A stretch of 63,997 nt of DNA, the filler included, from Folioceros fuciformis (Eukaryota), in assembly GCA_049999805.1 (NCBI GenBank). It is 8 parts of 8 records of this genome, joined end to end, with 100 filler letters (N's around TTAATTAATTAA, not from the genome) between each part and the next. Parts side by side here need not be neighbours in the genome. Positions count along the whole stretch, not along the records: positions 58,264 to 62,795 come from JBNGIO010006350.1; 7 more parts are not named here. One strand, given 5' to 3'. Below the pieces are notes generated by a model, which saw only the letters and a list, made by a program, of their open reading frames with translations, did no database searches and was not told the DNA's origin. The first letter of the stretch is position 1. Every line of letters starts with the position of its first letter. Below are positions 21,807-62,470 of this stretch, one piece after another. The position numbers and the translations under genes were made by a program.

Positions 21807-23684
21807 ATGATGCCGGAGCGCCCGTCGCTCACAGCGCAGCTGCAGCTGGCGTTGCAGCGGGCTTTGAGCAATAGTGGATCCGGGCTTGGGAACGGGAACG
21901 GGAATGGGAATGGCGATGGGAGTGGCGGCAGTAGCAGGAGTGGGAGTGGCCACGGCTCGGAGAGCAGGTTGCATGAGAACGGGGCGAGGAGTGTGGGAGC
22001 GTCTTCCTCGGACGCGGGGTCTCCTTCCCCTTCGCACTCCGGGAGCGCGGAGCCTTTGTGGCTGGAGGATCGGAGCTACGAGCACGAGCAGCGGCGGCAG
22101 AATCTGGCGTACTTGGAGCACATGCTGACGGACGGGGCTGGTTTGAAGGACCCAGATGAGATGGAGGTCACGGGCCTGCTGGCGTACCAGGTAATGCACA
22201 GCGAGTTTGCGGATATGATCGGGGATGTGGCCACACGACTCGGTATTTCTGACAGTGATTCTCCCTCTTCTGTGCGGGCCTCGTCTGGGGACGGGATTGT
22301 GGACGATTGGATCTCGTCCGTGCTCAATGCTTCTTTGCCTCAGACGCCGAATGACTGCGGGCCTGTCCTGCCGTCTCCTTCCTCCCCTCTCCTTCTCCAA
22401 GCTGACCCCTTCCCGATTTCGGTGCCAGAGTACGGCCACCGTGCAGGAGACGGCCAGGATGATGCGGCGCGTGCCGGGACGGTGCCTGATGCCTCTTCTC
22501 AGGATTTAGGGTTTGACGATGTCAAGTTCGTGGTGATGGAGTGTGCCAAGGCTGTGCTTGAGGACGATGTGCCCGTTGCCACCAGGCTGGCGAGTTATGT
22601 GCGGGAGTTTGCAACTCCTCATGGCTCCAGCCTGCAGAGACTAACGCATTACGTCATAGATGCGCTGTTGGCTAAGCTGTATGGCACAGGAGCGGATTTG
22701 TATACTGCCCTGAGCAACGGGCAGCTGGTGGTGCATCCCTCTCCAAAATTTCATGAGCTCATGTCCACCAGACACCCCAAGGCTCGATTGGGGTACCAGT
22801 TTGCTTACAATGTTTTTCTGGATGCGTTTGAAGGAGCAGACAGTGTACATATCATTGACTATGGAATCATGGCCGGGGGCCAGTGGCCTGGCTTGCTGCA
22901 GGCTCTTGCTAAACGTCCTGGAGGACCTCCGAAGGTGCGGATTACGGGTATAGAGTTGCCGCACCCTGGCTTGAACCCTGATGAGAAGGTCAAGGAAACT
23001 GGACGATTCCTCTGTCAGGTTGCAGCCAGTCTCGGGATCAATTTCCAGTTCAAGGGGTTTGCGGATAAGTGGGAGAGTGTGCAGATTTCTTCTCTAGGTA
23101 TCCGGGGGGATGAAGTGCTTGCTGTGTGCTGCATGTATCGGCTGCGGAATCTGCTCGATGAGAGTGTGGTGGCGTCCAATCCCCGGAAGACTGTGCTGGA
23201 AAGGATTTCCAGAATGAAGCCCAAGGTATTCGTGACAGGAATCATGAATGCTCCGTTGAACTCGCCTTTACTGATGGCCAGGATCCCTGAAGTTTTTTCG
23301 CATGGAGCGGCCTACTTTGACTTTCTGGAGACTTCCATGTCTAACCTTCCCGCAGAACGACTGTATTTGGAGCAAGAGCTGTTGGGCCGTTTCGTTCTGA
23401 ATGTTATTGCCTGTGAGGGGTTGGCAAGAATGGAGCGGTGTGAGACGTATTATCAGTGGCACAGGCGACTGGTGAATGCTGGTCTACAATGTGTACCAAT
23501 GAAGCAGAGTTGGTTTGACATGAGCAATGAGATATTGCGAGACTACGATAGGAACTGGACAGTTGGTGAGGATCGTGGGTGGACGCTTCTTGCCTGGAAG
23601 CGCAATGTTATGCAGGCTTATTCTGTCTGGGAACCATTGGCACTACCCACTGCAGGTAAGATAAGTTTCCGGAACTTGAAGTGA
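21807..23684 (+). CDS. GRAS-family transcription factor, LISCL (SCL9/SCL14-like) type, intronless, 625 aa
   Basis: VHIID core SVHIIDYGIMAGGQWPGLLQALAKRPGGPPKVRITGIELP; LRNLLDESVVASNPRKTVL; NVIACEGLARMERCETYYQW; SAW-like YSVW; low-complexity N-terminus. Confidence 0.93.
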   Translation: MMPERPSLTAQLQLALQRALSNSGSGLGNGNGNGNGDGSGGSSRSGSGHGSESRLHENGARSVGASSSDAGSPSPSHSGSAEPLWLEDRSYEHEQRRQNLAYLEHMLTDGAGLKDPDEMEVTGLLAYQVMHSEFADMIGDVATRLGISDSDSPSSVRASSGDGIVDDWISSVLNASLPQTPNDCGPVLPSPSSPLLLQADPFPISVPEYGHRAGDGQDDAARAGTVPDASSQDLGFDDVKFVVMECAKAVLEDDVPVATRLASYVREFATPHGSSLQRLTHYVIDALLAKLYGTGADLYTALSNGQLVVHPSPKFHELMSTRHPKARLGYQFAYNVFLDAFEGADSVHIIDYGIMAGGQWPGLLQALAKRPGGPPKVRITGIELPHPGLNPDEKVKETGRFLCQVAASLGINFQFKGFADKWESVQISSLGIRGDEVLAVCCMYRLRNLLDESVVASNPRKTVLERISRMKPKVFVTGIMNAPLNSPLLMARIPEVFSHGAAYFDFLETSMSNLPAERLYLEQELLGRFVLNVIACEGLARMERCETYYQWHRRLVNAGLQCVPMKQSWFDMSNEILRDYDRNWTVGEDRGWTLLAWKRNVMQAYSVWEPLALPTAGKISFRNLK

Positions 23685-33413: not shown

Positions 33414-34330
33414 CTAAAGTTCCAAATCATAATCTAAAGAATACGCAATGCACTCAATTGCGCGGGCTTGCTCGAAGGTCAGAGGCTCCCGTACAATTCT
33501 CCAGGTCTTCGTGAGCCTCTCAAGTCTATTTGCACTGTCAAACTTCCTGCTATGCACATGCCCAGAAAGGGTTGCGTATATTGCAACCATACCACTTGCC
33601 TTTGCTCCTCAGATACCCAGCCCGTGTCCTTCCGTAAACAGTTACTCAATTTAGGGTGGGCCTTGCAGACTGCAGCCCACCAAGCTTTCCTGTTCCCGTC
33701 AGGACGACCAAACTTCAACCCCACAATCGCCTCCAGTTTATCTTGGAAGAACTCAAATACTCCTCTCAGAGTATTGGAGTATTGGAGTTGGACGCCCTCA
33801 ACAGGTCGTACTCTAGACATTGGATTCAGAATTTCGTATTCTCCTCCATCACCTTGATCATCTGCTCCTTGTCTGCAATCCTCTTCTCCTTGTCTGCAAT
33901 CCTCTTCTCCTNNNNNNNNNNTCTGCAATCCTCTTCTCCTTGTCTGCAATCCTCTTCTCCTTGTCTGCGATCCTCTTCTCCTTTTCCAACAACATGTCCT
34001 CAAAGCTCCTCACCATCTTCTCCTTGTCCAACAACTTGTCCTCAATGCTCCTCGCCAACAACTCCAAGAGCTTCTCCCACTTGGAGGAATTCTCTTCTTT
34101 CCTGATAAGATCCAAAGTGATCCAACGTGCATCATGCTTCACTAGTCTTGAACTAGGAGAAATAGATCTGTCTTCATGCCTGATAGACACAACAAACAAT
34201 CTGTCAGTAACAACAGCGCCATCACAAACAAGACTCCATGAAGCGCCATCACAAACAAGACTCCATGAAGAGCAGAAGCGAGAGGAGGCAACCCTGCCCT
34301 GTTCCGAGCGACAGGTGTCTGCTGCATGCT
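33414..34330 (-). pseudogene. Pseudogenised paralog of the orphan coiled-coil/YxxLSxHVH ORF at 60187-61074
   Basis: Reconstructed: ...(KEKRIAD)n KEQMIKVMEENTKF*IQCLEYDLLRASNSNT/LRGVFEFFQDKL...RKAWW...GWVSEEQ/KASGMVAIYATLSGHVHSRKF...LERLTKTWRIVREPLTFEQARAIECIAYSLDYDLEL*. Lesions: TGA at 33826-33828, 8-bp duplication at 33773-33788, 1-nt deletion near 33602. The 5' start is uncertain. Confidence 0.85.
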
Positions 34331-35007: not shown

Positions 35008-38000
35008 TGTTATTTAACACAAATAATTCCCTTAGGATCGAATTCCAGTGCTATAATGACAAAGAGGGTTTGTGTGGACCTCACAGCACCCCCGGGTGCA
35101 ATATTTTCCTCCACATGGAGTTTCAGGGTCATCAATTCCGTTTTCATCTGAGATCAGTTTGATTTCCTTTGATGGGTGTCCCATAAGTAGCACGTATAAC
35201 CTTGTCTTGTAGTTCGTAGGCAACACCACTTATTCCTCCACAGCATCAATAGTTGGCCTTCTTCTCGTGAGCTCGTTTGTTGGATCTTGATTGGGTCTGG
35301 CAACAGTGAGAGCTCTTAAATATCTCCTGGTTGGTGGCGACTTATGATTCTTCAAGGCCACTCGCAGCTGAGCTTCCAGACTTTCTTCTCCTCCAGCTTG
35401 GTTACATATCAGAGTTTTTGTGTGTGTTTGTTCCAGGAAATACAGAAAGTGTTTTAAAGTGTTTTCCTGAAAGGTCGTGACTATTCGCTAAGTGGCTATT
35501 CGCTTAATTATGACATAAACCAAATGGTAACCCTAACAGGGTTTATTTCCAACACGCCCCCATAAGCGAAGTAGCCTGATTAGCGGCAAGTCACGAGAAT
35601 ACAATGGGAGAGACTCTCCTCATTGGCCTGAACTTGTGCGTCCTTGCCATTGCGATTTGCTTCCTGCTCCAGAACCAAGGAAGAAGGGTACGGCCGGTAA
35701 TGACACAGCAACGACTCCAGCGACACAAGGACCTGCACATCTCAGAGAAAACTTGCACAATGGAGCAGAGATGGATGGCAGCAGGATGGGAAATCTAGCT
35801 GCAATGCTCTCTAAAACTGAGGCATAAAAGAAGCAATCCAGCAGCGGAGAAGTCGGCAGAACAACTGCAACTAAAACAGCAGCTGAAACAAGCTGCTGGA
35901 TGTCCGCTGCCGAGCGCACGAAAACGTGCAGCAAAAGACTGAAGACTGCAGAGAAAAATGGCAATTAGATCCGAAAGAGAGCTTCATCCGCCAAAGTCAG
36001 CAGTCGGGCAACTGTCCAGAGATCACCCAGCGGGCGAGAGGAAATCTGTGACTCCCAGAGCTGCCATATGTCGAGCATGTAGGCCAGAAGGCAGAAATTT
36101 TGTCAGGAGGTCAGCAGGATTCTCCTCCGTGGGTGTATACTAAATCTGTACTTCCTTTGCCTGCACAGAGTGACGAATAAAATGGTGATGCACCTCGATG
36201 TGCTTTGTTCTCGCGTGGAAACGCGGATTTGCAGTCATAGCAATCGTGGACATGTTGTCACACCATATCACGGTGGGTTCAGAGGGCAGAAACCCTAATC
36301 CACTGAGAAAACTGCGTTCCCATATGGCCTCCTTGGCTGCTTCAGTAAAGGATTTGTACTCCGCTTCAGTCGACGAGAGGGCAACACTTACTTGTTTCTT
36401 TGCAGCCCATTGCACAGCTAAATCGGAAAGGAGAAAACAGTAGGCAGATATGCTTCGACGAGCATCAGGATCGGTGGCCCAATCGGCATCAGCAAAGCCA
36501 CAAAGAACCTGATCCCGAGATCGCCCTCGGAAGCATAGCCCATGCCGTTGAGTACCTTTCAGGTAACGCAAAATGCATTTTACAGCACCCCAGTGCTCCT
36601 TGCCGGGATTGTCCATGAACTGAGAAACAACGCTAACCGAATACAGAATATCCGAACGAGTCCAGCAACTGATGTAATTGAGACAACCAACTGCGTGGCG
36701 ATAAGGCACTGTAGACATGGCTTGCCGATATGCATCAGTCTGGGGGCATTGAGCATGGGAAAGCTTGACACCAATCATACCAGGAGTGGAGACAGGCTTC
36801 GAAGAATCAAGCTGAAAACGTCAAAGAGTCTCTGAAATATACTTAGCCTGATGGAGGAAAATGGTACAAGAGGCAGGCTCACGAACCAACTGAACCCCCA
36901 ACACAAAAGTAAGTTGACCAAAGTCTTTCATATCGTACTTGCTATGTAGCATCTGCTTCACCCAGGCTAACAATTCAGGGTTGTTGGAAGCCAGAATTGC
37001 GTCATCCACATACAACGCCAGAATCACTAGCCGACCGGCCTTTGAATACAAGTACACACTGGCATCACCAGGATTCTGCATGAAGCCGATCGACTGTAGG
37101 TATTTATCAATGGCCTTATACCACTCCCGTGCTGACTGCTTTAAACCGTAAATGGTTTTCTTCAGCCGACAAACCCAATCTGGGTGTTTCAAGTCCGTGA
37201 ATCCCTCTGGCTGCTGCATATAAATGTCCTCTTCTAACTCTCCATACAAAAATGCTGTACATACGTCCATTTGTTGAAGATCCGAATCATGGGCAGCAGC
37301 GAGAGCAAGGATCATACGTATGGATTGGGTTTTAACAACCGGGCTGAAGGTTTCTGTGAAGTCCACACCAGGGATTTGAGTAAACCCACGAGCAACAAGG
37401 CGAGATTTGTATCTGGCAATTTGGCCCTCAGCATTGAGCTTGTGTTTAAATACCCATTTGGAGCTAACAACCTTTCTGTCTGCTGGAAGGGGACAAAGTT
37501 CCCAAGTGGAATTCTTGATGAGTGAACTGTACTCATCTTGAATAGACGGTTTCCAGTGATGTTTGTCCGGCCCTGTAACAGCCTCGATATATGTACGGGG
37601 TTCAGACTTGGAGAAAGGTTGCTCAGCAGAATCCAACAAGGTAACACCAGCACTTGGACGACGAAAGTCAATTGAGGCATAAGGTGGCTCCACCCACTCA
37701 GATGGAGGAGGACGTGAACGACGAGGATATCTAGGTTCTGTGGTGTCCACAGAGGGTGTATTTGCCACAGGATCAGTAACATGGGGAGACTCCTTGGACG
37801 GTGTGGCAGCGGAAACACCTGGAACAACATCAGATTGCTCACCAGATGTGGAGGGTGAGGTAAATATATCAATCTCGACTTGATCCTCGCCTGCATCCTG
37901 ATCCAACACATGTGGTTGGTGTGAAATACCAACCTCACTAACTTGGGAATCAGCGGGGTCCTGTGGGAACTGAGTGGAGTCCTTATCTGCAAATATATCG

Positions 38001-40446
38001 GGCTCCAAGGGACCAGGCAGAGAAGTGGCAGTGGGGAACAAGAGTGCAGGTGAATCATCTGGAGGATATTCTGAAATGTCTTCACAATCAGAAGCATCGA
38101 GATGTTCAACAGAGGACTGATTATGCGGCAGAGAATCAAAATACTGTTTAGCAGGTACGCTAATTTCCTTGAAGGTTACACTTCGAGCATAGACAGCTTC
38201 CGTGGTAATAGTATTGTACAGCTTATAGGCTTTGACTTCTTCCCCATGTCCAACAAATATGAGAGGCTTGGCTCTGGCCTCCAGCTTCTTCCGTTTTTCT
38301 TGTGGGATGTAGGCATAAGCGGGAGAACTGAAAACACGAAGGTGAAGAAGGCTGGGCCTTCTCTGCCAGACAACCTCAAAGGGTGTTTTATCTACCACTG
38401 CCTTTGTCAGCAAACGATTGAGGATATAAGTTGCGGTAACGACTGCCTCTGCCTAGAAAGCTTTACTTAGTCCTGACCACTCAAGCATACTCCTTGTCAT
38501 TCCAAGCAGTGTTTGATTTCGTCTTTCAGTGACCCCATTCTATTGCTGGGTGTAGGGAATAATCAACTGCCAAAGTATGCCGTGATCAGTAAGAAATTGA
38601 GTAAAGTGAGAGTGTACGAACTCTGTCTCGTTGTCTGATCGAAGGCACTTCAACGAACAGCCAGTTTGCTTCTGGACAATAGGCAGCCAGTCCTTGAAGA
38701 CACTGAAGGTATCTGACTTCAACCGAATTGGGTAAGTCCAGGAATACCTGCTTTAATCATCAGTGAGAGTAAAATAGTACTGGGCTCCTCCCAGACTAGG
38801 AATATGTATCTTGCCAGATATGTCAGCATGCACCAATTCTAACACACGGGATGCGTGATGGGCAACAGTTCTAGGGAAGGGGAGCTCCTTCTGTTTAGCA
38901 ACTACGCATGCATCGCACAAGGGAAGATCCTGGAAACATTTCGGCAGGGGTTCCTTGTAGCAGGTAAGACCAGAAAGCCTGATCAATTTATCACGGTTAG
39001 CATGACCTAATCTGGCATGCCAAAGACTGGCAACTGCAGCTTGAGAAAGGCGAGCAGCGTTCACCAAGTCACGAGGTAAACATGTCAGGTTCATTTGATA
39101 TAGATCATGAACGAGTTTGCCATCAGCAACGATCGCATGCCTGTCTCCCCCTTTCTTCACTAACACGCAGCCAGTGGCAGTGAAGGACAGGTCAAGCTGA
39201 TGCATGGACAGAAGTTGGCTAACGGAAAGCAGATTCTTAGCCATATGTGGAACATGCAACACATGATCCAAATGAAGGACAGAGCCATCAAGGAGACGAA
39301 AACGGCAAGTACCACTCCCCCTGATGGGCAAGCCCGTCCGTGTTATCTCATCACCCAAAAGGACCTTATCACGTGCTGAAGAGGACCGGCAGTGAGTAAA
39401 TAACGATTTGTCATTGCAGATGTGAGACGTTGCACCTGAATCTAGGTACCAAACGTGGGGAAGAGATGGGAGAGAAGAAGCCAAGCAAACCGTCATCACA
39501 ACAGGAGGTTTGTTGGAGGAAGAAGAAGAACGATCTCGGGTTGCAGTCACGTGAGCTTCAGCCGGACGAACAGGCTTCTCAACTCGACGGGGCTCACCAG
39601 ATTTCTTCTTTCTACATTCTCTTTCCCAGTGCCCTTGGATGCCGCACCAGTTGCAGGTACCCACCCCTTTCTGGGAAGCAGGCTTCGAAGTCGAAGCACC
39701 AGGTGAAAATCTGCCTTTGTTGTTTTTGGGCTTGGCATACAGAACCTTGTCAAGTTTTGTGCGTCCCGTATGCGGCATAGAACTAACACGGCTTTGCTCT
39801 TCTTGCAGCAAAGCACCTACCACATCAGTAAAACTGATGCGCGAAGGGAAGCCCAAGGCAACAGCTATGTCAGCTTCACGGAGAGTAGATCCGTAGCTAG
39901 ACACAAACGGCTGATAACTTGGAGGCAAACTAGTGAGCAACTGGGCGACCGCATCCAAGTCTGGAAACGATGAACCCAGATGAATCAATTGAGCACAAAG
40001 CTGATGAAAATGTAGGATGAAAGGTGAAACTTTTTCTCCCTCTTTGAGTCGTAAAGAAAACAGCTCGCCTCTCACTGCACACATTGTGAGGATGTTCTTT
40101 ACCTCATAAGTTTGCAGGAGTTGATTCCAGATGTCCTCCGCTTTGGGAATAAAAGCCACATCTGGAAGGAGAACTTCATCGAGTCCACTAATCAATACCG
40201 CACGAGCGACACTATTCAGGTTCTCCCACTTTCCTTTCTCCTCTGATGTGGAAGTTATTGATGGCTTCGTAATTGTTGCATCCACCACACCCCACACATG
40301 TCTTGCTTGCAGGGCTGCAGTCATACAGACACGCCAGCTTTCGAGCTTAGTACCATTGAAGCGATCATGCTCTTTGAATTCAGCGGCATAAGTAGGCTGT
40401 ACAAAAACAGGAGAAGCAATCTCACTTAGGAAAAATGATCACATGT
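35008..40446 (-). mobile_element. Ty1/Copia retrotransposon (gag-PR-INT-RT-RH) with 3' LTR at 35008-35554; 5' end cut by contig edge; degenerate
   Basis: CNWCGIQGHWEREC zinc knuckle, WYLDSGAT protease, LWHARLGH integrase, LRSDN, LYVDDAIL RT, FADADWA and STEAEY RNase H; PPT atgggggcg then LTR TGTTGG...TAACA; stops at 38753, 38540, 36140 and a frameshift near 36800. Confidence 0.93.
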
Positions 40447-45841: not shown

Positions 45842-48800
45842 CTGCCTTTGGAAACAAAATGTGTGTTCCAGGCAAAACCTCCTAAGAAGGATGGAGTTGT
45901 AATGACCACTAGTATTTTGAGATGAGTGGTGTGTATCAATTCCAGCTTTAGCAGAGGCTTAGCTGTGGAGTATAAATAGGCCAGTGTTAGGTTCTTAAGG
46001 ATATATTGTGATACTGGGTTACACTGATACACAGAGAGACAGAGAGAGAGGTAGACAATGAGAAGTCTAGCCTTGAGGCATAGATGTGGAGGGCTTGAGG
46101 AGCAAGCTGATCAGATTGAGTCTAGGGCAATAGCCAATGGGGCTTAGATCGCCAAACTCTTTTGTAAGTATCTTGAATAAAGAGCAACACGTAGAGGAGG
46201 TGGTCTACGAGTCATCAGTGGACGGTAGGCTACTTGGAGCCTAGTGCTGAGTCGTAAGAGAGGGAGTGAGTGATTTGTAAGTGGAGCGCTGCGGAGTGAA
46301 TAGACGAGATTCGAGGCCGTTGCTTCCTTTTACGCTGCATAAGGAAGGGGGCGTTACTTAGTTGGTATCAGAGCATAGTCTATTCCTCCAAGATGGCTAA
46401 GCGCCATAAGATGCAGATACGAGAGGTTTCTCCTAATCCCCCATCTCAACAACTTGAAGAGAATCAAGGCAAGGAGATGCCGCCTACCGACTCAGCAGGA
46501 CCATCCGGAGACAAATCTGAAGATTGGAAGACGCAAATGATGGTCGCTTTACGACAAATTCTTCCCAAAGTATTGCCTGAAGTTCTCCAAGATTTGACAG
46601 CATCTGGGAAAAAGGCAAGGAAGGATCCACAACCTCTAGCTCTACAAAATGAGGAAGCGGAAGACAATCAAGATCCTTTTCATATCTTCGAAGTAGTTCC
46701 GAGGGCAAATTTGAAGTTGGCCGTGCTAGATAAGTATGAGGGAGTAAGGGATCTACAAGTTATTGATTCCTGGATTTACTCTATTGAAAGCTATCTTGCC
46801 TCATCTGGCCTGGAGCCTAAGCATTACTTAGGAACTGTGGGCAACTTTCTCAAAGGGTATGCTTTGGTGTGGTGGCGAAGTTATTGTGCTAATGTAACCC
46901 AGGGAAAATCGAGCACACACCATCACAGACTGGGCATCTTTTAAAGAGGCCTTGAAGAAGCAATTTCAACCTGCGAATGCTTTGCGCTTGAGCCGACAGC
47001 TGCTTGATAATATAATGCAAACAGGTACTGTACGGGAATATGTAAGTGCCTTCAGTGAAGCTGTTATGCATTGTACTTTAATGAGTGAAGTTGACAAACT
47101 ACATCGCTTCATGGTTGGTTTGAAGGACTGGGCTGCTAACAGAATTGAGTTGTATAGTCCAATGACCTTGGCAGAGGCCATAACAGCAGCAGATGCTATC
47201 CCAGATACCTTTCATTCCAACACATCCAACTCCTCACGAAGATTTCGAGGTAATACCCGTGGACGGTATATGCAAACTAGGGTTTCTTCCAACAATGTTG
47301 GTAGAGGGACTCCCAAGGATAATGAAAGAAGTACAGTTGCAAGAGGCAACTCCAGTGGGAGCTTCCGTGGGAGAAATCGAGGAGTGCGCAAGGGGCGCGG
47401 AGCTCAGAGAACAGTGACAATGGGTTCTCGAAAAGGAGTTTGTTTTGCTTGTGGAGAGCCGAGACATTATGCGAATGAATGCCCCAATACTCAACAAACT
47501 TTGAATGTTGTTCAAGACAACCCACAGCCCCAAAGACTTAGGATTACAAAAGTATCCGGATCTGAAAATCCCAAGTGATGGGATTGGCCACATGTTTCAC
47601 AGGCTACATGTGGTGAGTCTGAAGATGCTGAGGACAACATTATTCATAGGGCGGGTGGAGAGCTCATGTATATAGAAGGATGTGTGAATCGTGAAGAAGC
47701 GAAGATGTTGCTCGATCTAGCAACAACACATAATTTCATTTCTCCTGGCAGAGCAAGTAAGCTTGGTTTAACATGGGCTAGTACTTCAGAGCCATGTACA
47801 ATGAAACAAGCAAAAGGAAAGCTGCAGTTCTTAGGACAGCTGGGAAAAGTCCCTTTGCAGACAGGCAATTGGACAGGAGAAGCAAGCTTCACAGTTGTAG
47901 ATATGGATGATCATGAAATCATCTTGGGCTTAGAATGGATGAAGGCCAATAAGGTATGTGTAGACGTGGACTCATGCACCATACATATCTTACGAGATGA
48001 AAAGCACAAAGTGAGTTGTGCAGTTCTTGAGCATCAGCTTGGGCACAAGATTGATGAAGTCATCTCTAAAAAAGAGCTCAAGCGTTGTGTTAAAAATGGA
48101 GAGGAACTCTATTTGTTGGTGTTGCAAGGACTAGAAGATGCTCGGAACTCTATTTGTTGGTGTTGCAAGGACTAGAAGATGCTCTTGAGATGGAATCCCA
48201 GAAGCAACCAAAGATTCCAAAGGAGATATAGGCTATCTTAGATGAGTTTAAAGACTTGATGCCTACTGAGTTACCTCCTTTACCTCAACGGAGAGTTGTA
48301 GATCATGAAATTGATCTAAAGCCAGGAAGTGTACCGCCATCAAGAGTGCCATATAGATTGTCGCTATATGAGCTTCAAGAGTTGAAGAGACAAATGTCTA
48401 ACTTGTTAGCCAAGGGCTATGTTAGAGTCTCAAAATCCCCATTTGGTGCGCCAGTATTGTTTACGCAAAAGAAGAATGGAGGATTAAGGTTATGCTTGGA
48501 TTACAGAGCACTCAACCAGATAACAGTCAAAAATTCCTATCCTTTGCCAAGGATGGATGATATGTTTGACAGGTTGAAAGGTGCTAAGTATTTTACTAGA
48601 CTGGATTTGATGGCTGGTTATTACCAGATTCGCATCGCAGAAGGACATGAATACGAAACTCCTTGTAGGACAAGGTATGGATCTTTTGAATTTCTAGTCA
48701 TGCCATTTGGACTCACTAATGCACCAGCCACATTTCAGACTCTCATGAATAGTATATTCAGAGATCTGTTGGATGAGTGTGTTGTGATCTATTTGGATGA

Positions 48801-51800
48801 CATTTTGATATTCAGTTCTACTTTAGAGGAGCATGTCCAACACTTGAGGAAAGTATTGGAAAGGTTAAGGGCAAATTCTTTGTTCTTAGCTATAACAAAG
48901 TGTGACTTTGTTAAGGAAGAGATAGACTTCCTTGGATTCATTGTCTCTACTGATGGAATAAGGATGGATCCTGATAAGGTAAAAGCCATACAGAGTTTCT
49001 TCTTCTCTTGAAGAAGGCGAAGACTTGGAAGTGGGATGAGGAATGTCAAAGCGCATTCGAGGTTCTCAAGTTGAAACTCAGCACTACCCCAGTATTAGCA
49101 ATCTATGATCCAAAGAAGATATAGAAGTGTATACTGATGCGTCAGATACTGCTATTGGAGGAGTGCTTATGCAAGAAGGCAGGCCAGTGGCTTACGAATC
49201 AAGAAAGTTGCATGAACATGAGAAGAAATACCCCACATATGAGAAGGAGATGACAGCCGTCATCAATTGTCTCAAGATTTGGAGACACTATCTTCTTGGA
49301 AGATCTTTTGTGCTGTACACAAATAATGTAAGTACAAGCTTCTTTTCTAATCAGCTACGATTAAATGGAAGACAAGCTAGATGGCAAGATTTCCTAGCAA
49401 TGTATGATGTGGAGATTAAGTACAAGCCAGGGAAGGAAAATCTCGTGGCAGATGCTCTCTATCGTAAGCAGGAGTTGAGTTTAATGTCTGTTTTTAAGCT
49501 GAAGAATCCTAAGCTAGCTACAACACAAATGGTGATTGAGCCAAGGGACACTCACACGTAGATTAAGGAGGCTTATCTGCGCGATCCACTAGTGCAAGAT
49601 TGGATCAATGATGTGGAGCAACCGGGGTCTAAGTTTAAGCTTAGAAATGGCTTGTTAATGTTCAAGCAAAACAGGATTGTGATTCCTGATTCTCAAGAGT
49701 TGAGAAAAAAGTTGCTTGCAGAATGTCACGATGTGCCAAGCGCTGGTCATCGGGGAATTGACACAACTTTTGAGAAGTTGAAGAAGCTGTTTTACTGGCC
49801 TGGATTGTACAAACATATTGTAGAGTATGTGAAGTCTTGTGTAGACTGTCAATAGGATAAGGTAGAACATACAAATCCACAAGGTTTGTTGCAACCCTTG
49901 CCTATTCCAAGTGGGCCTTGGAAGAGTATATCATTGGATTTTGTTATGCCATTGCCACCCAGTAATGGATACACAACTATCATGACAGTAGGTTCAGCAA
50001 GCAAGCACACTTTATCCCCACGAAGAAGCAAGTGAAGGCTTTAGAAGTTGCTCAATTGTTTAAGAAGCATGTCTATGTGTTACATGGATTGCCTATGCAA
50101 ATTGTGAGTGATAGAGATCCCAGATTCACAGCGGAAATTTGGCAACAGCTTATGAAGAGCTTGGGAGTGCAACTATGTTTAAGCACAACATATCACCCTC
50201 ATACAGATGGATCTACAGAAAGGGTACATAGAATCCAAGAGGAATACTTACGACACTATGTATAGATGGACCAGAGGAACTGGAGTAATCATCTTGAGGA
50301 TGCAGAGTTTTGTTATAACCATACTGTACATAGCTCTACAGGCTATACACCTTTTCAGATGATAGGTAACGAAGCAATGGACGCAGTTTCCATGTTGAAT
50401 GTAGCATGTTTGAGACAGCAGCAAGAGAACCACGTGAATTTATTGAGCAGTTANNNNNNNNNNTGTTTGAGACAGCAGCAAGAGAACCACGTGAATTTAT
50501 TGAGCAGTTAAGGGCCAGGCATGAAATTGCTAAGAGGATTTTGGCCAAAGCTCAAGACAGGCAAAAGAAGTTTGCTGATAGGCATAAGAAAGAGGCAGAA
50601 TTTCAAGTGGGTGATAAGGTTTGGGTGAAGTTGAAGCACTTCCCAGTACCTCAGGGATTGTCCCCAAAGTTAAGGCCTAAGTATGGAGATCCTTTTGTAG
50701 TTCTGAAGCGCATTGGCAATGTGGCTTACAAACTACAACTGCATAATTGCATCTTCTCTCATGATGTGTTTCATGTCTCTTTGCTGAAACCGTTTGTGAT
50801 TTCGAAAGAGAATGAAGACATGAATAGGAAAGACTATGTTATCCTGGTTCAATATAACCATAGTCTGCAGGAGATTGTTAAATTCCTAGCAGAAAGGGAA
50901 GTGCCTTCTGTCCGTGGTAATGTTCTAGAGTATCTAGTAAGGCTTCCTGATTTTGCAGATCTTGTTTGGGTTTCACTTTACGATGTGCAACAAGGATCAT
51001 TGATGATCTCACGTTATACTGCAGGTCATTGAGGACAATGACATCTTCCTAGTGGGAGAGAGAGTAATGACACAAGTGAAACAAGGTAAAAGTTAAAAGT
51101 AGAAAGGTGAAAGCTAAATCTAGAGCTGTCTTGATGAAGAAGCAAGTATGCTTCTTGCTGCCTTTGGAAACAAAATGTGTGTTCCAGGCAAAACCTCCTA
51201 AGAAGGATGGAGTTGTAATGACCACTAGTATTTTGAGATGAGTGGTGTGTATCAATTCCAGCTTTAGCAGAGGCTTAGCTGTGGAGTATAAATAGGCCAG
51301 TGTTAGGTTCTTAAGGATATATTGTGATACTGGGTTACACTGATACACAGAGAGACAGAGAGAGAGGTAGACAATGAGAAGTCTAGCCTTGAGGCATAGA
51401 TGTGGAGGGCTTGAGGAGCAAGCTGATCAGATTGAGTCTAGGGCAATAGCCAATGGGGCTTAGATCGCCAAACTCTTTTGTAAGTATCTTGAATAAAGAG
51501 CAACACGTAGAGGAGGTGGTCTACGAGTCATCAGTGGACGGTAGGCTACTTGGAGCCTAGTGCTGAGTCGTAAGAGAGGGAGTGAGTGATTTGTAAGTGG
51601 AGCGCTGCGGAGTGAATAGACGAGATTCGAGGCCGTTGCTTCCTTTTACGCTGCATAAGGAAGGGGGCGTTACTTAGTTGGTATCAGAGCATAGTCTATT
51701 CCTCCAAGATGGCTAAGCGCCATAAGATGCAGATACGAGAGGTTTCTCCTAATCCCCCATCTCAACAACTTGAAGAGAATCAAGGCAAGGAGATGCCGCC

Positions 51801-53090: not shown

Positions 53091-56000
53091 ATGGATACTA
53101 GTCCACCTCCTCCACCACTTCCTCCTGGCGCATACAATCCTATCTTTACGTCTGATCTAAAAGAGAAAGATAGATTCACAGGTCAGAGGTATGAAGTGTG
53201 GAAAGTACGCATGAAATCGACATTGCTAGCTAGAGGAGTTTGGGGCATTGTAGATGGCTCAATACCTGAGCCTGACCCAAACAAAACAAAAGGAGAACAA
53301 GACAAATGGGCACATGCAAACAGCATTTCCATTGCCCTCCTTGTTGGTGGTCTGTCTGAGGATCTCATCCCTCAAATTGAGTTCCTGACAAAAGCCAGTG
53401 AGATCTGGAAGCAGTTGGAGAACCAATACCAGGTCAACAATGTCCTTACACTCTGTACCCTCAGAATAGAATTCTATGGACTAAGAATGCGGGAAGGAGA
53501 CAAGGTGCTTGCTCACACCAGCAAGTTCAGACATCTCCGAGCACAACTTACCTCCATGGGTACTGTAATGGACGAAGTTGATGCTGTAGCCCAACTATTA
53601 GCCAGTCTCCCACCTAGCTATCAATCTTTTGAATCCGCCAACAATGTTCCCATCAGACAAGCAAAGGCTGCTGGTGCTGCTGGGAAATCCTCCTCACTCA
53701 CCTTAGATGAGGTCATTGGTGCACTCTTCCAGGAAGAGCAGAGTAGACACCTGTCAGGGTCTGGACGTTCCAAAGCTGACAGGGTGCTCACTGCTTTCCG
53801 TGGTCGAGGTGGTCAAAGAGGAAAACAGCGGATGCAACAGCCTTTTCAAGGCAGTCGATTTGACGGTCCCCGACATGATGCAGGTTCAACCTCCACAGCC
53901 AAGAAAACAGGAAACTGTAATTGGTGTGGTCACCCTGGTCACTGGGCACGGGACTGTAGAAAGAAGAAAGCTGGCGAGCCACAGAAGGCCTCCCGTTCTG
54001 CTGCAAGTGCCACCATGAAAGAAAAACCTGGTGACACCACAAAGCCAGTGGTTAAAATCCTAACAGTTTGCCTTTCTTCCCTTATAGGTGATAAGGCAGC
54101 ATGGTACTTGGATTCTGGGGCCACAGCACATATATGTAGAGATGAGTCTCTCTTTGAGTCTCTCACCCACTCTTCTAATATAGATAGAGTTTATTTGGGT
54201 GATGAGCAGAATACCACTAGCCTGCAGATACAAGGACAGGGGTCCTGCACATTCAGGCTACATGATGGTTCCCTGCTCACCTTGACAGATGTTCTCTATG
54301 TCCCTAAAATGGCAAAGAACCTCTTGTCCTTAAGCAAACTCCTACAACTCAGACGTTTCAAGCTTACGGCTCATGACGACTTTTGCTGTTTCTCCAGAGT
54401 GACCTCACCTTCGATATGTGTTTTCAAGGCCTTACCAGAACATGATTTGTATCGTCTGGATTTCACCTGCTTGCCATACAGCAGAAACACGGCTTATGCA
54501 ACAAGTGTCGGAAACCTTACGGCACAACAGCAGTCTATTTTATGGCATGCCCGGCTTGGCCATCTTAATCGCAAGACCCTGGCATCCATACATAAAAACG
54601 ACTGTTACAGAGAGCCGTTGCCTACCTGCCTCAAGGAGCTTCCATTATGTGAGACATGTGCTCTCGCAAAGCAGAAGGAGTTGCCGTTCCCTGCTGGCCC
54701 CGCACATAGGTCCACGCAATCCCTTGAACTTGTCCATGGTGATATTTCTGGCCGCCTTCAGGTTTCTTCACTTGGGGGGGCAGACTATTATTTCACCATC
54801 ACTAATGACTATACCAGACTCACATGGACATTCCCCATGAAAAGGAAAAATGAGACCTTCCCCATCTTCCAAGACTGGTTGGTTACAGTTCAGCGCCAGA
54901 CCGGGTGCTTGTTAAAAATCTTTCGATCTGACAATGGCACCGAGTTCGTGAATCAGTCGTTCACAAACCTATTTTCAGAACACGGCATCATTCATCAATT
55001 AATAGTGCCGTATACCCAGCAACAGAATGGCGTTGCAGAACGTAAAAACCAGACTTTAATGGGAATGACAAGAGCAATGTTACTGTGGTCAGGTTTACCA
55101 TCACCTTATTGGGAAGAAGCTGTCGTGACAGCTACTTACATTCTGAACAGACTACCCACAAGTTCTCTTGCTGCCAAGACACCATATGAACTCTTCTGGA
55201 AGAGGAAACCAAGTCTTCTCCATCTCAGGGTTTTTGGCTCTAAGGCCTACGCATATATCCCTGCAGAGAAGAGACGCAAGTTAGATGACAGGTCAAGAAG
55301 GCTCATCTTTGTGGGTTACAGCGAAACTGTGAAGGCTTACAAGTTGATAGACCCCACAACTCTGCAACCTACTCTTGCGAGAAGCGTCACTTTTATGGAA
55401 TCCTTACAGTCTGCCTCACTTACTGCAGAGTCTGTTGAGCAACATGTAGTTCCAGAGGACGTGACCAGCAATGAGGCACCCACAGGCTTACATTCCTTGT
55501 ATCCCATGGATGTGGATGGCACAGTCCCTGCTGTGACAGTTGGTGATGCACAGGCAGATGCTGTTCCTCCCATTGCCGATCTGGATGTCAATCCAAATGG
55601 AACTCCAGCAGTTGCTGATGATGCTGCTAGTGATCACTTAGAAGAGCGTCCAGCACTTACAGCAGACGATGAGTTAGTCCTAGACCCAGATCCAATGGGT
55701 TATCATGCTGCAGGCATGGATCAAGGTAATTTAGAGGAAGATGAATATCCTTTTATCCCGGAAGATGACTTACTTGCAGATGATGACTATCTTATGCCTG
55801 CCGCTATTGAACCAACTTCACCTGTAGCTTTGGCACCTCCAGAAGATGATGGACCACGTAGGTCAACCCGCTACAGGCCTCCACCTTTGGAATGGAATGA
55901 ACCACGTTATCAGTCTGTTGACTTTCGCCACTTTGCAGGAGCTGTAACTTCTCCTCCACCTGTCCCACCAGAACCTGCTAACCTCACTAAAGCTTTCACA

Positions 56001-57560
56001 AGTCCTGACAAGGACAAATGGAAATTCGCCGTGGATGATGAGTACAACAGCCTAATGAAAAATGGGACATGGAAGTTAGTCCCCAGACCAGCTAACAGGA
56101 AGGCCATTATGTGTAAATGGGTCTTCAAGCATAAATTAAATGCAGATGGGAAGATAGCCAGATATAAAGCACCACTTTGTGCTCGAGGATTCACGCAAGT
56201 TGCAGGTCTCGACTATCAGGAGACATTCTCTCCTGTTGTTCGTGCCCAATCTCTTCGGTTACTCTTTGCCTTAGCAGCTGAATACGACCTTGAACTGTAG
56301 CAGATGGATGTATGCACTGCTTTTCTCCATGGCATTCTGGAAGAAGAACTGTATATGGAGGAGCCCGAAGGCTATGTTGATCCTGCACATCCGGAGCATG
56401 TGTGCCTGTTAATAAGATGCCTTTATGGCTTGAAGCAAAGTGCAGAGCGCTGGTACAAGCGCTATGACAAGGCACTAAAAGGACTTGGCTTTTGTCAGTG
56501 TGCAGCAGACTCAAATGTTTATGTGTTACAAAGAGGGGCAACTTACGTGATTCTTGCTCTCTACGTAGACGACGTCATTCTCGCTGCAAATGATACTGTC
56601 CTGCTGGCACAAGTGAAAGGCATGTTACAACAAACTTTTGAAATGACCGACAGTGGGGATCTTCTATTCTGCCTTGGCATACAAGTGTTGAGGGTCCGTT
56701 CAGAGGGACTATTGATAATCCATCAACACAAGTATATAGCAGAAATTCTACACAAGTTTAACATGGGCCAAGCACATTCAGCTACCACACCATGTGCTGT
56801 GGGTGCTAAGCTAACAAGGTATGAATGTGCTACGACTGAAGCTGATCAACAGGACATGCGTGATATTCCATATCGTCATGCTGTTGGAAGCTTAATCTTT
56901 GTTAGTAACTGGACAAGACCTGATATCCAGCACTCTGTAAGCACTGTTTCACAATTCTTAGAACACCCAGGCCGTGCCCACTGGACGGCAGTGAAAAGAA
57001 TATTTCGATACTTGAAAGGGACTCATCATATAGGCCTTTGCTATAGGAGCAGTGGTACTAGACACTTATCTCTTCAAGGATTCACCGACGCAGACTGGGC
57101 TTCAGACAGCGACTCCCAAAAAAGCCTCTCTACATACGCTTTCCTCCTGTCCCAAGCAGCTGTCAACTGGAGCTGCAAGAAGTAGACCAGTATAGCCCTC
57201 TCCAGCACTGAGGCCGAGTATAAGTCTCTTACGGATGCTACGAAAGAAGTGGAATGGGAGCGTACGTTTTTAAAGGATATCGGAGAGACACAGGATGGTC
57301 CCACTAACCTCTTTTGTGACAACCAGTCCGCGATCGCTTTGGTAGCTAACCCCCGCTTCCATGCCCGTACAAAACATATTGAGATCCATCATCACTATGT
57401 TAGGGATGCTGTAGAGAGGGGAATTGTCAAGATCCTCTATGTGCCAACAGATGCTAATACAGCCGACATCCTAACAAAGGCCCTGCCCAAAGACAAGCAT
57501 CAGAAACATATGGAAGGCCTTGGCCTGTTTAACTACAGCCAGTACTTCAAAGCAAAGTGA
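53091..57560 (+). mobile_element. Near-intact Ty1/Copia gag-pol, same family as the 35008-40446 element; LTRs outside the contig
   Basis: CNWCGHPGHWARDC, WYLDSGAT, LWHARLGH, FRSDNGTEF, LYVDDVIL, FTDADWA, NPRFHARTKHIEIHHH; only two in-frame TAG stops (56298, 57183). Confidence 0.95.
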
Positions 57561-58263: not shown

Positions 58264-59762
58264 GATACTGTGAGGCCTGTGGGAAGTAGCAATCGACTCA
58301 GCCAAGAGAGTGCTGGTGCTGTGCACACAAGCAATCCAGAATTTGTCAATTAAGAGAAGAGAGGCAGGATTGTGCATACATCCCCTGCAATTGTGACAAT
58401 GTTCGAGTTGAACTTGTGCAGCATCTCAATAGCCAGAATCACATACAGCAATGCATCTCTGTCCACGTATTGATTGCAGTAGCTGCACAACCAGAGAAAT
58501 GTGAGAAAGAGCGAGGAAGCAGTCTATGTAATTCGACCAACATGGAGCTCCTGCGAGCAATTTCCTGAATGACAGCAGCCTTACTCATTCAAGCCATTTG
58601 TGAACTCTGCAAATCCATTGTGGGTGTAAAACATGGACTGCAGCAAATGGAAGTGGAAACCATCTATTTGATACTCTTCCACCCACCTGCCATGAGAAAG
58701 AAACGTGTGACTTCCAAGCTACCTTGCTCTAGATGCGAACTGCCTGAGAGCAAATTCAAACACAGCATTCAGAAAGATCAGTCACACTCGAGATCATCGA
58801 GGCAGACTAAATCCAATAACCACTTCAACTTTGATAAGGGGTAGCAAAGCACTTCGTATTCACCATAATTGCATATGCGGGTGCCTGTATGTTTGTGACG
58901 CCCTCGCCGTCCTGCAATGCAAGGGTGAACTCAGCTGCTACAGTGAACGGGATGGTGAACAGACTAAAAAACAATCTCAGCATTCTGCACCACTCCTTGC
59001 AAGGCAGAGCACACTAACCATCATGGAAGTAACAATCATTAGCACCATCGAATGAAGAAAGGCCAACCATCTCATCTGCAGCCGCATGTGAGTGGACTAT
59101 GTCCACGATGAAAAACAGGCCCATTCCTGTTTCATCATGAACTCAAAACATGAGAAACGAAACGCTGACTTGATGTAAACTGGGCTTCAGTAGCAGGCTT
59201 GCAAGGAATGCCTAACGAACCATGGGCACTGTCAACCAGATGTTTGAAATCTTCTGGGGTTCCAAAGCGACTACCTACCGCAAGCATATTCGTAACCTGC
59301 CCAGTTGGCAAATTCTGCACATTAAATGGGCGCAAAATAATCTCAACGAACCTTCAAACATGAGGCACATGAAGAGCACAACAGGGTTGTACCTTATAGC
59401 CAGCACTTGCATAGTCTACATGCTCCTGAATACCCATGAGCTGGACAGCGTTGTACCTAGACTTCTTGACATGAGGAAGAGCCCTATTTGTCATAAAACA
59501 TGGTTTCTCAGACTGCAAACTACATACTACAGACATTCTGAGCAGGGCACAAAACAAAGGCAACGAACCACCAGACTCAATCCATACTTGCCTTCGCAGT
59601 AAACTGTTGGAACGTTGTTACACCAAGTTCTTCTCCACTTATTCCGACATGACATTCATAAATTCGTAATGGCTGTGGTCTCTTGGGACTCTTGTGCTGC
59701 CATTGGTGCCGCTGTTGAGGTGGATTCCACGTACAGGCGCTAAATGTATTACTCCCAACATC
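58264..59762 (-). pseudogene. Starch branching enzyme 3 (BE1/SBE3-type, GH13) gene fragment with introns, degenerate
   Basis: Exons TWNPP...PKRPQPLRIYECHVGISGEELGVTTFQQFTAK, ALPHVKKSRYNAVQLMGIQEHVDYASAGYK, VTNMLAVGSRFGTPEDFKHLVDSAHG, then reverse complements of the exons listed for 61140-62470. Confidence 0.85.
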
Positions 59763-60186
59763 TGAATAGATTGGTTAAGATCAACTTAGCATCATCGTCC
59801 ATCCTGCAGAACACATTCACATCCTTTGTCTCCGCAGGTTCAACCTGCCGGATATACAGGTCATTACATCTGCTGCTACGGGCATTAGAAGAATTTTCCT
59901 TACAGCACACACCAATGCCATCAACATTAGAAGAAACCATCAGTCACAGAGTACAGGGTGTGGTTGATATGCTCACGTGGTTGCAGCGCATTCGCTCAAC
60001 GTCGAGAAAGCTGTTGAGAAGGCTACCATGGCCAAAACGAGTATGCACCGCTTGCCGAAGCGGGAAACAAATGTAGGAGAACAAATACAGCAGACATTCT
60101 CTTTGTCCATAGTTCACAAGTTGTGAACATTCTTTGTCCATAGTTCACAGTTCACATCCTAATAGTAAAAACGGTTGCATTGAAAT

Positions 60187-61074
60187 TTATGAGTCATCCG
60201 GATCTATCACTAAGTGATAGCCTAGAGAGTCAGCTATGCAAACTATTGCCGAAGCTTGAGCAAATGTTAGTGGAAACCTGGATATCTTCCATGTTCCATT
60301 CTGCCTTTCAAGTAGCGAAAGGACACGAAATTTATCGTCGTGAACATGGGCAGAAAGAATTTTGTACATATCCACCATGGCTCTAACTTGATCATCAATG
60401 GATTGCCAACCTCCAGAGATCTTGATACACTGAAACAACTTCACATCTGAGGATAGAAAATACCGCCACCAATCAGCTCTGGTTCTTCTATCCTTGGTGT
60501 CTCCATACTTCGCCTTCAAGCGTTCTTCAAAGAACTCGAAAAGGCCTCTCAAGTTGTTGGTGCTTCTTGCCGTTAAGAGATCGAATTCGAGATCCTGAAT
60601 TCTTCCTTGACAGAAAGAAATAGCCAGGTCCTTAGCTTCTTCGGCCCGCTGCCCGGCTTCTATGGCCCGCTGCCCGGCTTCTATGGCCTGCTGCAAGGCT
60701 TGCTCCTTAGCCCTCGAAGCTTCTATGGCCTGCTCAAAGGCTTGCTCCCTAGCCTGCTGCACGGCTTGCTCCCTAGCCCTCGAAGCTTCTATGGCTTGCT
60801 GCAAGGCTTGCTCCCTAGCCTGCTGCAAGGCTTGCTCCCTAGCCCTCGAGACCTGGATGGTTTCTTCATGCAGCATCTTGACTGAATCAATGACCATCTG
60901 TTGCCTCTCGGGGTCCTTGTATGTTCTCAACAGGGTCAACAAAGGGTCCATACAGGAAGCTCTAACACTGAAAGCCTTGACATGCCTATCCCGAGCATAA
61001 TCTCTTCTTGGCATACTCAAGCCCATGAGTGATCCAGAAGCAGAGCCGCTAATCGGCACCAGCAAAGCCGCCAT
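60187..61074 (-). CDS. Uncharacterised intronless 295-aa protein: transit-peptide-like N-terminus, AREQALQQ coiled-coil repeats, conserved C-terminal YxxLSxHVH domain
   Basis: Uninterrupted ORF from ATG 61074 (MAALLVPISGSASGSL...FSVRAS); its C-terminal ~130 aa aligns with the pseudogene at 33414-33830. Confidence 0.8.
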   Translation of the reverse strand: MAALLVPISGSASGSLMGLSMPRRDYARDRHVKAFSVRASCMDPLLTLLRTYKDPERQQMVIDSVKMLHEETIQVSRAREQALQQAREQALQQAIEASRAREQAVQQAREQAFEQAIEASRAKEQALQQAIEAGQRAIEAGQRAEEAKDLAISFCQGRIQDLEFDLLTARSTNNLRGLFEFFEERLKAKYGDTKDRRTRADWWRYFLSSDVKLFQCIKISGGWQSIDDQVRAMVDMYKILSAHVHDDKFRVLSLLERQNGTWKISRFPLTFAQASAIVCIADSLGYHLVIDPDDS

Positions 61075-61139
61075 AGATAGAGACGCCCGCAAACCTTAAC
61101 CGGCAAAGGCTTTCCGATTCTCCCACTACCTCTCACCCC

Positions 61140-62470
61140 GCACCCATTTTATGTCCAGAATTTTGCCAACTGAGCAGGTTACGAATATGTTCGCGGTAAG
61201 TAGTCGCTTTGGAACCCTAGAAGATTTCAAACATCTGGTTGACAGTGCCTATGGTTCGTTAGGCATTCCTTGCAAGCCCGCTACTGAAGCCCAGTTTACA
61301 TCAATTCAGCGTTTCGTTTCTCATGTTTTGAGTTCATGATGAAACAGGAATGGGCCTGTTTGTCATCATGGACATAGTCCACTCACATTCGGCGGCTGCA
61401 GACGAGATAGTTGGCCTTCCTTCATTCGATCGTGCTAATGATTGTTACTTCCATGATGGTTAGTGTGCACTGCCTTGCAAGGATTGGTGCAGAATGCTGA
61501 GATTGTTTTTTCGTCCGTTCACCATCCCGTTCACTGTAGCAGCTGAGTTTACCCTTGCATTGCAGGACGGCGAGGGCGTCCCAAACATACAGGCAACCGC
61601 ATATTCAACTATGGTGAATACGAAGTGCTTCGCTACCTCTTATCAAAGTTGAAGTGGTGAGTGGATTTAGTCCGCCTCGATGATCTCTAGTGTGACTGAT
61701 CTTTCTGATTGCTGTGTTTGAATTTGCTCTCTCAGGCAGTTGAATATGAATACGAAGTGCTTCGCTACCTCTTATCAAAGTTGAAGTGGTGAGTGGATTT
61801 AGTCCGCCTCGATGATCTCTAGTGTGACTGATCTTTCTGAATGCTGTGTTTGAATTGCTCTCTCAGGCAGTTCGCATCTAGAGCAAGGTAGCTTGGAAGT
61901 CACACTTTTCTTTCTCATGGCAGGTGGGTGGAAGAGTATCAAGTAGATGGTTTCCACTTCCATTTGCTGCAGTCCATGTTTTACACCCACAATGGATTTG
62001 CAGAGTTCACAAATGGCTTGAATGAGTAAGGCTGCTGTCATTCAGGAAATTGCTCGCAGGAGCTCCATTTTGGTCGAATTACATAGACTGCTTCCTCGCT
62101 CTTTCTCACATTTCTCTGGTTGTGCAGCTACTGCAATCAATACGTGGACAGAGATGCATTGCTGTATGTGATTCTGGCTAATGAGATGCTGCACAAGCTC
62201 AACTCCGAACATTGTCACAATTGCAGGGGATGTATGCACAATCCTGCCGCTCTTCTCTTAATTGACAAATTCTGGATTGCTTGTGTGCACAGCACCAGCA
62301 CTCTTGACTGAGTCGATTGCTACTTCCCACAGGCCTCACAGTATCCATGGTTGACTGAACCCATCAGTAAGGGTGGGTTGGGCTTTGACTACTTTGCCAG
62401 CGTCTCACCCTCTAAGATGTGGTCGTATCTCATTGGAAATGTTCCAGACAGTGAATGGAGTATGAGTCAG
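61140..62470 (+). pseudogene. Second, inverted SBE3-type gene fragment
   Basis: Exons VTNMFAVSSRFGTLEDFKHLVDSAY, GLFVIMDIVHSHSAAADEIVGL...NDCYFHD, RIFNYGEYEVLRYLLSKLKW, WVEEYQVDGFHF, YCNQYVDRDALLYVILANEMLH, ASQYPWLTEPISKGGLGFDYF...SEWSMSQ; internal ~130-bp tandem duplication at 61616-61871. Confidence 0.85.

Follow-up and report, generated by a model that had tools for sequence, protein, structure and literature searches.

An intact open reading frame (ORF) of 295 codons followed by a TAA stop was found at positions 60187-61074, on the minus strand, of a 63,997-nt stretch of DNA from Folioceros fuciformis (assembly GCA_049999805.1), referred to below as the window. The coding part spans 60190-61074, with the ATG at 61074 and the stop codon at 60187-60189, and an in-frame TAA is present 22 nt upstream of the ATG (61096-61098). 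The ORF belongs to the contig at 58264-62795 (JBNGIO010006350.1), where it occupies a unique 1.8-kb centre between the arms, each of more than 1 kb, of an inverted duplication, a feature overlooked in the initial annotation of this DNA. The window itself is composed of eight short contigs joined by spacers (44 N, 12 nt and 44 N), and the order of the contigs and the distances between them are without meaning. Because the other contigs carry Ty1/copia, GRAS and PLS-type PPR genes, the DNA is nuclear and comes from a land plant. As the frame comprises 300 stop-free codons and its product, designated P0001, has homologues at E 1.7e-13 and a confident predicted fold, it is beyond chance. Our results show that this ORF represents a genuine land-plant gene, nuclear and coding for protein, and that P0001 is a member of a small, uncharacterised and sparsely distributed eukaryotic family without a Pfam entry.

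Three modules of P0001

The ORF had been described as uninterrupted and built of three modules, and both the reading of the frame and the AlphaFold2 model of P0001 (input alignment of 14 family members, mean predicted local distance difference test score, pLDDT, 80.9) agree with this, giving a disordered segment, a helix and a folded domain. Residues 1-42 (60949-61074) are disordered (pLDDT <50), rich in Ser, Ala and Arg, and presequence-like, with the end ..FSVRAS. Residues 55-169 (60568-60912) are modelled as a single long helix, the stalk, with pLDDT of 85-97 and a composition rich in Ala, Gln, Glu and Arg; over its approximately 115 residues the hydrophobic period is about 3.6-3.65. The helical repeat quoted in the initial annotation is present and takes the form of a tandem array at the DNA level (60635-60849), in which 2.5 copies of a 66-nt unit (60686-60849, 93% matches), encoding 22 amino acids, are combined with 3.2 copies of a 21-nt unit (60635-60701), encoding the 7-residue unit IEAGQRA. 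The number of repeats varies between sequenced contigs, as seen from skips of 75, 41 and 141 nt. Residues 170-295 (60190-60567) form the conserved C-terminal domain, the head, delimited by its model and its invariant columns. Modelled alone, the C-terminal 140 residues gave pLDDT 85.0 and a predicted template modelling score (pTM) of 0.82, with five helices, a small three-stranded sheet and a beta-hairpin between helices 4 and 5. Prediction of a two-copy complex of residues 43-295, run without controls, returned a score of 0.00, which weighs neither way.

The first 40 residues of P0001 include 7 Ser, 6 Arg or Lys and 2 Asp, and the earliest acidic residue is at position 25. Thus, the N-terminus has the features of chloroplast transit peptides: it is unstructured, Ser-rich and acid-poor, and it ends in a V-x-A-type site (..SVRA/S). 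By composition, such features would permit targeting and are no proof of it, and organelle import of P0001 is possible given this presequence-like segment. Among 16 relatives, no more than 3-4 have an acid-free N-terminus of at least 19 residues; import is therefore not characteristic of the family as a whole.

The family and its C-terminal domain

An exhaustive phmmer search of 1,835,955,588 cluster representatives revealed 11 matches at E<=1e-3, two of these at E<=1e-10 and the best at E 1.7e-13 with 34% identity, and a search with a profile of the domain added four further members. A word-indexed protein search gave no match with full-length P0001; with the domain profile it gave one match among longer proteins and six among proteins of near length. 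One of the ten clusters looked up carries a name, that of a hypothetical protein of the zoosporic fungus Gonapodya sp. JEL0774, and the others are ENA or Logan records from contigs of 0.9 kb to 2.9 Mb. All members have a common build, in which an N-terminus of variable length is followed by a helix of short tandem repeats and then by the C-terminal domain of approximately 125 residues. The units of the stalk are unrelated among members (KSKDEVL, AREAAAT, AAAQRES, ARREGAE and an 11-residue EVK..AEKR unit, next to the 22-residue unit of P0001).

Within the head, G177, W203, L213, Y237 and H245 are invariant in alignments of 14 and 16 sequences, and E183 and L240 are conserved in at least 90% of the 16 aligned sequences. 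C216, C278 and H243 are lost jointly in two members (P0007 and P0010), and H243 is lost alone in one clade of five. It is solely this joint loss in P0007 and P0010 that prompts the idea that C216, H243, H245 and C278 might form a zinc site. Taken together, the alignments show that the domain is old and constrained at a few positions and that the stalk has been rebuilt lineage by lineage. Pfam returned nothing for P0001 apart from E 0.015 in the stalk, and no Pfam family is common to more than two of 14 members, in keeping with the original statement that the protein could be assigned to no known plant family. No usable match was obtained in the ESM Atlas with residues 155-295 of P0001 or residues 78-216 of its relative P0006. 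A full-text literature search on HEPN, coiled coils and chloroplasts gave nothing relevant, judged by titles and the beginnings of abstracts, and we make no claim that the family has gone unpublished.

The window contains a second, decayed copy of the family (33423-34330, minus strand), with a stalk of KEKRIAD units. A tblastn search of the window with P0001 recovered the domain at 33423-33778, split over two frames (32/57 and 21/56 identities, joint E 1e-18), and the resulting identity of about 47% is close to the 45% estimated earlier by hand. This copy is a pseudogene: an in-frame TGA sits in ..ENTKF*IQCLEYDLL.., the frame shifts immediately ahead of ..TLRGVFEFF.. through a tandem duplication of 8 nt and changes once more near 33600, and the KEKRIAD repeat contains an assembly gap of 10 N. 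It is not an intact, constrained gene; the initial annotation was right that its stalk unit is unrelated to that of the ORF. The argument drawn from this pair, that the domain is constrained and the stalk rebuilt, fails as far as it depends on two copies of which one is dead, and stands through the distant homologues. The claim that the family is multicopy is borne out by the pseudogene together with contigs about 90% identical to the ORF in sequencing runs of the same organism. We found no flanking DNA in common between the two copies in the window. On its contig (29313-34444), the decayed copy lies approximately 180 nt upstream of an intact gene for an 875-aa PLS-type PPR protein with an E motif (30615-33242), on the same strand.

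The HEPN signature is Rx4-6H, which opens the last core helix. The conserved stretch around H245 reads Y..LS.H.H..K, and it was from this motif (YxxLSxHVH) that the domain had been called HEPN-like. This call is not upheld: an Arg 4-6 residues ahead of H243 or H245 is present in none of the 16 aligned members, and the HEPN models of Pfam matched neither P0001 (E<=10) nor any of 14 members (E<=0.1), with the provision that HMMER filters conceal most matches above E 0.1. PADLOC gave no HEPN match in the domain; its single CARF_HEPN match, in one of 16 members, falls in the stalk, and the PADLOC matches in the stalk were dismissed as coiled-coil noise. Foldseek returned nothing at E<=1e-3 from the PDB (full model and domain) or from BFVD. 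A sequence-profile search of the PDB gave at best a TNFAIP8-like protein at E 0.78, judged to be a chance match, such chains being absent from the rows of the VIA wide structure search.

Among the best 50 rows of the VIA search, three are titled HEPN (8xdj, 7ae2 and 2hsb), and HI0074 (1jog) appears as the 'substrate binding domain of a nucleotidyltransferase'. We take HI0074, the GlnE C-domain, several Cas13 C-terminal regions, AbiA and Csm6, all found in these rows, to be of HEPN type. The predicted fold of the head is thus weakly suggested to be nearest to HEPN or nucleotidyltransferase-substrate-binding helical bundles, and by these rows the head may be a helical bundle with a HEPN-like topology, short of HEPN membership. 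Compared with HEPN and KNTase_C-type domains (1jog; the HEPN-MNT toxins 8xdj, 7ae2 and 5yep; GlnE 3k7d), the P0001 family has neither Rx4-6H nor a profile match, and its domain differs in its position at the end of a repeat stalk and in the beta-hairpin between helices 4 and 5. Unlike HEPN-MNT pairs, the family is eukaryotic and has no MNT partner. The domain has no clear structural neighbour, and the family is new, no more than a remote variant of the HEPN-like bundles.

The transcript and the surrounding palindrome

Nine sequencing runs contain parts of the window, and contigs of four of them were compared; the kinds of run ('RNA?' or 'DNA?') are guesses made by the index, and no run is on record as RNA. 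The ORF is covered by contigs of two probable RNA runs, X3 from the same species and X8 from a related one. One X3 contig is continuous from 60339 to 59976, through the stop codon and the 3′ untranslated region (UTR; 59977-60186, minus strand) to a splice donor CCAC/GTGAGC, and there joins 59976 to 59802, skipping a 173-nt GT..AG intron (59804-59976) that has CT..AC ends on the plus strand. X3 gives no cover at 59816-59939, where X1, a 'DNA?' run of the same organism, is covered. Because the GT..AG joint is seen in a contig of X3, this run contains RNA and the transcript of the ORF has an intron in its 3′ UTR; by these contigs, both this species and a related one apparently transcribe the ORF. 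The description 'intronless' accordingly holds for the coding part and fails for the 3′ UTR.

The X8 contigs are 90-95% identical to the window over 60121-61141 only, and their flanks differ. The indels listed in their coding sequence (+6, -2/-1 and -75 nt) are each net in frame, and the stop is preserved as TAG in place of TAA. Variant contigs of about 90% identity in X1 and X3 show that close paralogues or alleles exist. Contig depth is 500-790 for contigs at >=99% identity and 9-17 for the variants of about 90% in X1, figures from which no copy number is derivable. At 60172, 60201, 60314, 60566 and 60921, all covering contigs of the same and the related organism differ from the window; the window therefore has private changes here, unless it derives from a different individual or a different copy. 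An exact 19-nt direct repeat (TCTTTGTCCATAGTTCACA), with its copies 31 nt apart, is present in the 3′ UTR at 60100-60149, where similarity to the contig of the related species stops (60121).

The acceptor of the splice is the 5′ end of a starch-branching-enzyme-like exon (59591-59803, minus strand; ..LRIYECHVGISGEELGVTTFQQFTAK), as given by the X3 contig joint. In the LRIYECHVG frame this exon has two stops near its 5′ end. The next branching-enzyme-like exon (59393-59481, minus strand; ..LPHVKKSRYNAVQLMGIQEHVDYASAGYK) was identified by phmmer against solved branching enzymes (E 1.9e-4), and a further exon, containing GFHFHLLQSM, of the left arm of the inverted duplication gave E 1.1e-3; the flanking fragment is thus of GH13 identity, its exon translations matching solved 1,4-alpha-glucan branching enzymes. 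The left arm (58264-59333, minus strand) consists of branching-enzyme-like exons and introns and is cut by the start of the contig. By sequence comparison, the right arm (61140-62345, plus strand) repeats 58264-59333 in inverted orientation, with 93.5-96.8% identity, and runs on to at least 62527 through another branching-enzyme-like exon. The two copies of the fragment are oriented head to head, and the left one additionally has the exons at 59591-59803 and 59393-59481, which lie in the unique centre. A 132-nt internal tandem duplication (61615-61872) was seen in the right arm, and a 1-nt insertion shifts the frame of its ..LHK.NS.. exon.

In branching enzymes, the catalytic residues include the Asp of GFRFDG and the Glu of AEDV. 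Both copies of the fragment read GFHFHLLQSM where the solved enzymes read GFRFDGVTSM, and the left copy reads IAGDV; judged by these motifs, the catalytic Asp and Glu are missing from the fragment. Given these two motifs and the pair of stop codons early in the acceptor exon, the fragment is not a working enzyme gene. It is also 5′-truncated here, since the upstream exon, seen as a loose end of RNA contigs at 59805, is not in the window. At 59391, a loose end of X3 shows the following exon in its right-arm or parent version, and for this reason RNA contigs over the branching-enzyme exons are not assignable to the ORF locus. The contig of the chimeric transcript has a depth of 610 vs. 25.6 for the ordinary upstream branching-enzyme junction, values that cannot rank expression. 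The arms of the inverted repeat were considered as termini of an element and ruled out, as they are branching-enzyme gene sequence.

Possible roles of P0001 and other genes in the window

We put the probability at roughly 0.5 that the ORF is a transcribed gene of a new family whose product combines a spacer stalk with a working head, the latter having a binding function or a non-canonical site. The stalk would act as a spacer of variable length, probably oligomerising, and would be free to be rebuilt through replication slippage; it may present the C-terminal head, which would be the working part. The head is more probably a binding module, with a nucleotide, a nucleic acid or a protein as its putative ligand, and such a role is likelier than that of a canonical HEPN RNase because Rx4-6H is missing. 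Sacsin-type eukaryotic HEPN domains bind nucleotides and are not known to cut RNA. By analogy only, as no match to them was obtained, they could serve as a model for a eukaryotic HEPN-like head engaged in dimeric binding instead of catalysis. Alternatively, the head may be a non-canonical His-dependent or metal-holding module around H245, with H243, C216 and C278.

Several observations weigh against this proposal. The first His of the HxH motif is missing in 7 of 16 members, and one of the two copies in the window is a pseudogene. Carry-over of DNA into an RNA run is possible for an intronless ORF, and it is only the splice in the 3′ UTR that argues for RNA. A stop codon upstream of a spliced exon is a pattern expected of targets of nonsense-mediated decay; since the stop of the ORF precedes the spliced downstream exon, the chimeric transcript is perhaps unproductive. 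Finally, among 20 listed coding substitutions between the window and the related species, 16 are non-synonymous when taken singly. With 691 non-synonymous and 194 synonymous sites in the ORF, the neutral expectation is about 3.6:1, and the substitution ratio appears to be near 1 in this partial list, outside which there are 47 further differences. In favour of the proposal, none of the 20 changes an invariant residue.

It is also conceivable, if unlikely, that the ORF is of mobile-element or viral origin, either as a still-mobile passenger or as a domesticated relic. Such an origin would explain the lack of introns, the copies, the patchy distribution and the rearranged site. It is consistent with the two copies, one of them decayed, within 64 kb of short contigs, with the variant contigs of about 90% identity in the same organism, with the loss of similarity to the related species at both borders of the ORF unit (60121 and 61141), with a zoosporic fungus as the named relative and with a locus formed by a truncated host gene in palindromic arrangement. 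However, neither terminal inverted repeats nor target-site duplications were found at these borders, the arms are host branching-enzyme sequence, and the window copies are without common flanking DNA. Furthermore, no transposon or viral family of Pfam was matched, BFVD held no structural match, and metagenome and viral contigs, searched with the single protein and with a five-sequence alignment, yielded no relative. A likeness may be drawn to LINE-1 ORF1p, in which the coiled coil evolves fast and the C-terminal domain behind it is conserved. P0001 likewise has a rapidly changing stalk before a conserved small domain, and its gene is multicopy and intronless, but it gave no Transposase_22 or RRM match and is without an adjacent reverse transcriptase ORF, poly-A or target-site duplication hallmarks.

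An equally improbable explanation is that P0001 is a purely structural coiled-coil protein, an organelle tether or a nucleoid or membrane scaffold, with the head as a docking module that performs no catalysis. The long Ala/Gln/Glu/Arg-rich helix with a hydrophobic period of ~3.6, the freely varying length of the stalk and the lack of a recognised catalytic motif are in line with it. Similarity to the exchangeable apolipoproteins, with their amphipathic repeats of 11 and 22 residues, extends to the 22-residue unit, the period of ~3.6-3.65 and the Ala/Gln/Glu-rich composition of P0001, and one relative out of 14 members weakly matches the Apolipoprotein repeat model (PF01442, E 2.3e-4). Other members of the family, however, use 7-residue units, and the conserved part is the head and not the repeats. 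The invariant His and the co-varying Cys in a small domain would instead suggest chemistry or metal binding, and the family is too thinly distributed to fill a core structural role.

The function first proposed, that of a toxin, a selfish effector or an RNase of HEPN type directed to organelles, is quite doubtful; on this view, two HEPN-like heads would be dimerised by the stalk into a composite site that uses the conserved His. HEPN-type bundles do dominate the weak structural matches, H245 is invariant within the conserved Y..LS.H.H..K stretch, the N-terminus is presequence-like, and the family is multicopy with a pseudogene; against this, the canonical motif and any HEPN profile match in the domain are missing, as described above. 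A bolder variant is a long shot: the family would be a new eukaryotic HEPN-like clade with a His or metal site at Y..LS.H.H..K replacing Rx4-6H, acting as a stalk-held dimer, imported into organelles in some lineages, and serving there as a fast-evolving conflict or selfish factor that cuts or binds organellar RNA, its patchy spread resulting from horizontal transfer or repeated loss. Least credible, and highly improbable, is that the ORF is a young or decaying frame transcribed only through local rearrangement, for which the near-neutral listed sample (16 non-synonymous : 4 synonymous), the pseudogene sister copy and the spliced junction downstream of the stop could be cited, but which is hard to reconcile with an intact frame of 295 codons, in-frame indels and a preserved stop in the related species, a domain recognisable from plant to fungus by its invariant residues and a confident fold (pTM 0.82).

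Evidence for any striking mechanism is thin, and what we describe is so far a well-documented orphan family. If the head is the working module of the new family, as we favour, it would represent a domain absent from Pfam and present in a plant, a zoosporic fungus and other eukaryote assemblies, borne on a stalk remade by tandem duplication in each lineage, and the family would offer a compact case of the evolution of spacer length around a fixed functional head. An HEPN-like fold without the canonical motif, possibly organellar, would, if true, broaden the eukaryotic relatives of HEPN. The locus itself, where a single spliced transcript within a palindrome links a new gene to a branching-enzyme fragment that is dead, bears on gene birth and on the reuse of gene fragments in plant genomes of large size.

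Elsewhere in the window, a GRAS-family gene is located at 21807-23684. Ty1/copia polyprotein ORFs (gag, integrase and RVT_2), partly split by stops, and an RVT_1 fragment were observed at 53091-57185, 36821-40324, 11584-12432 and 48256-49011.
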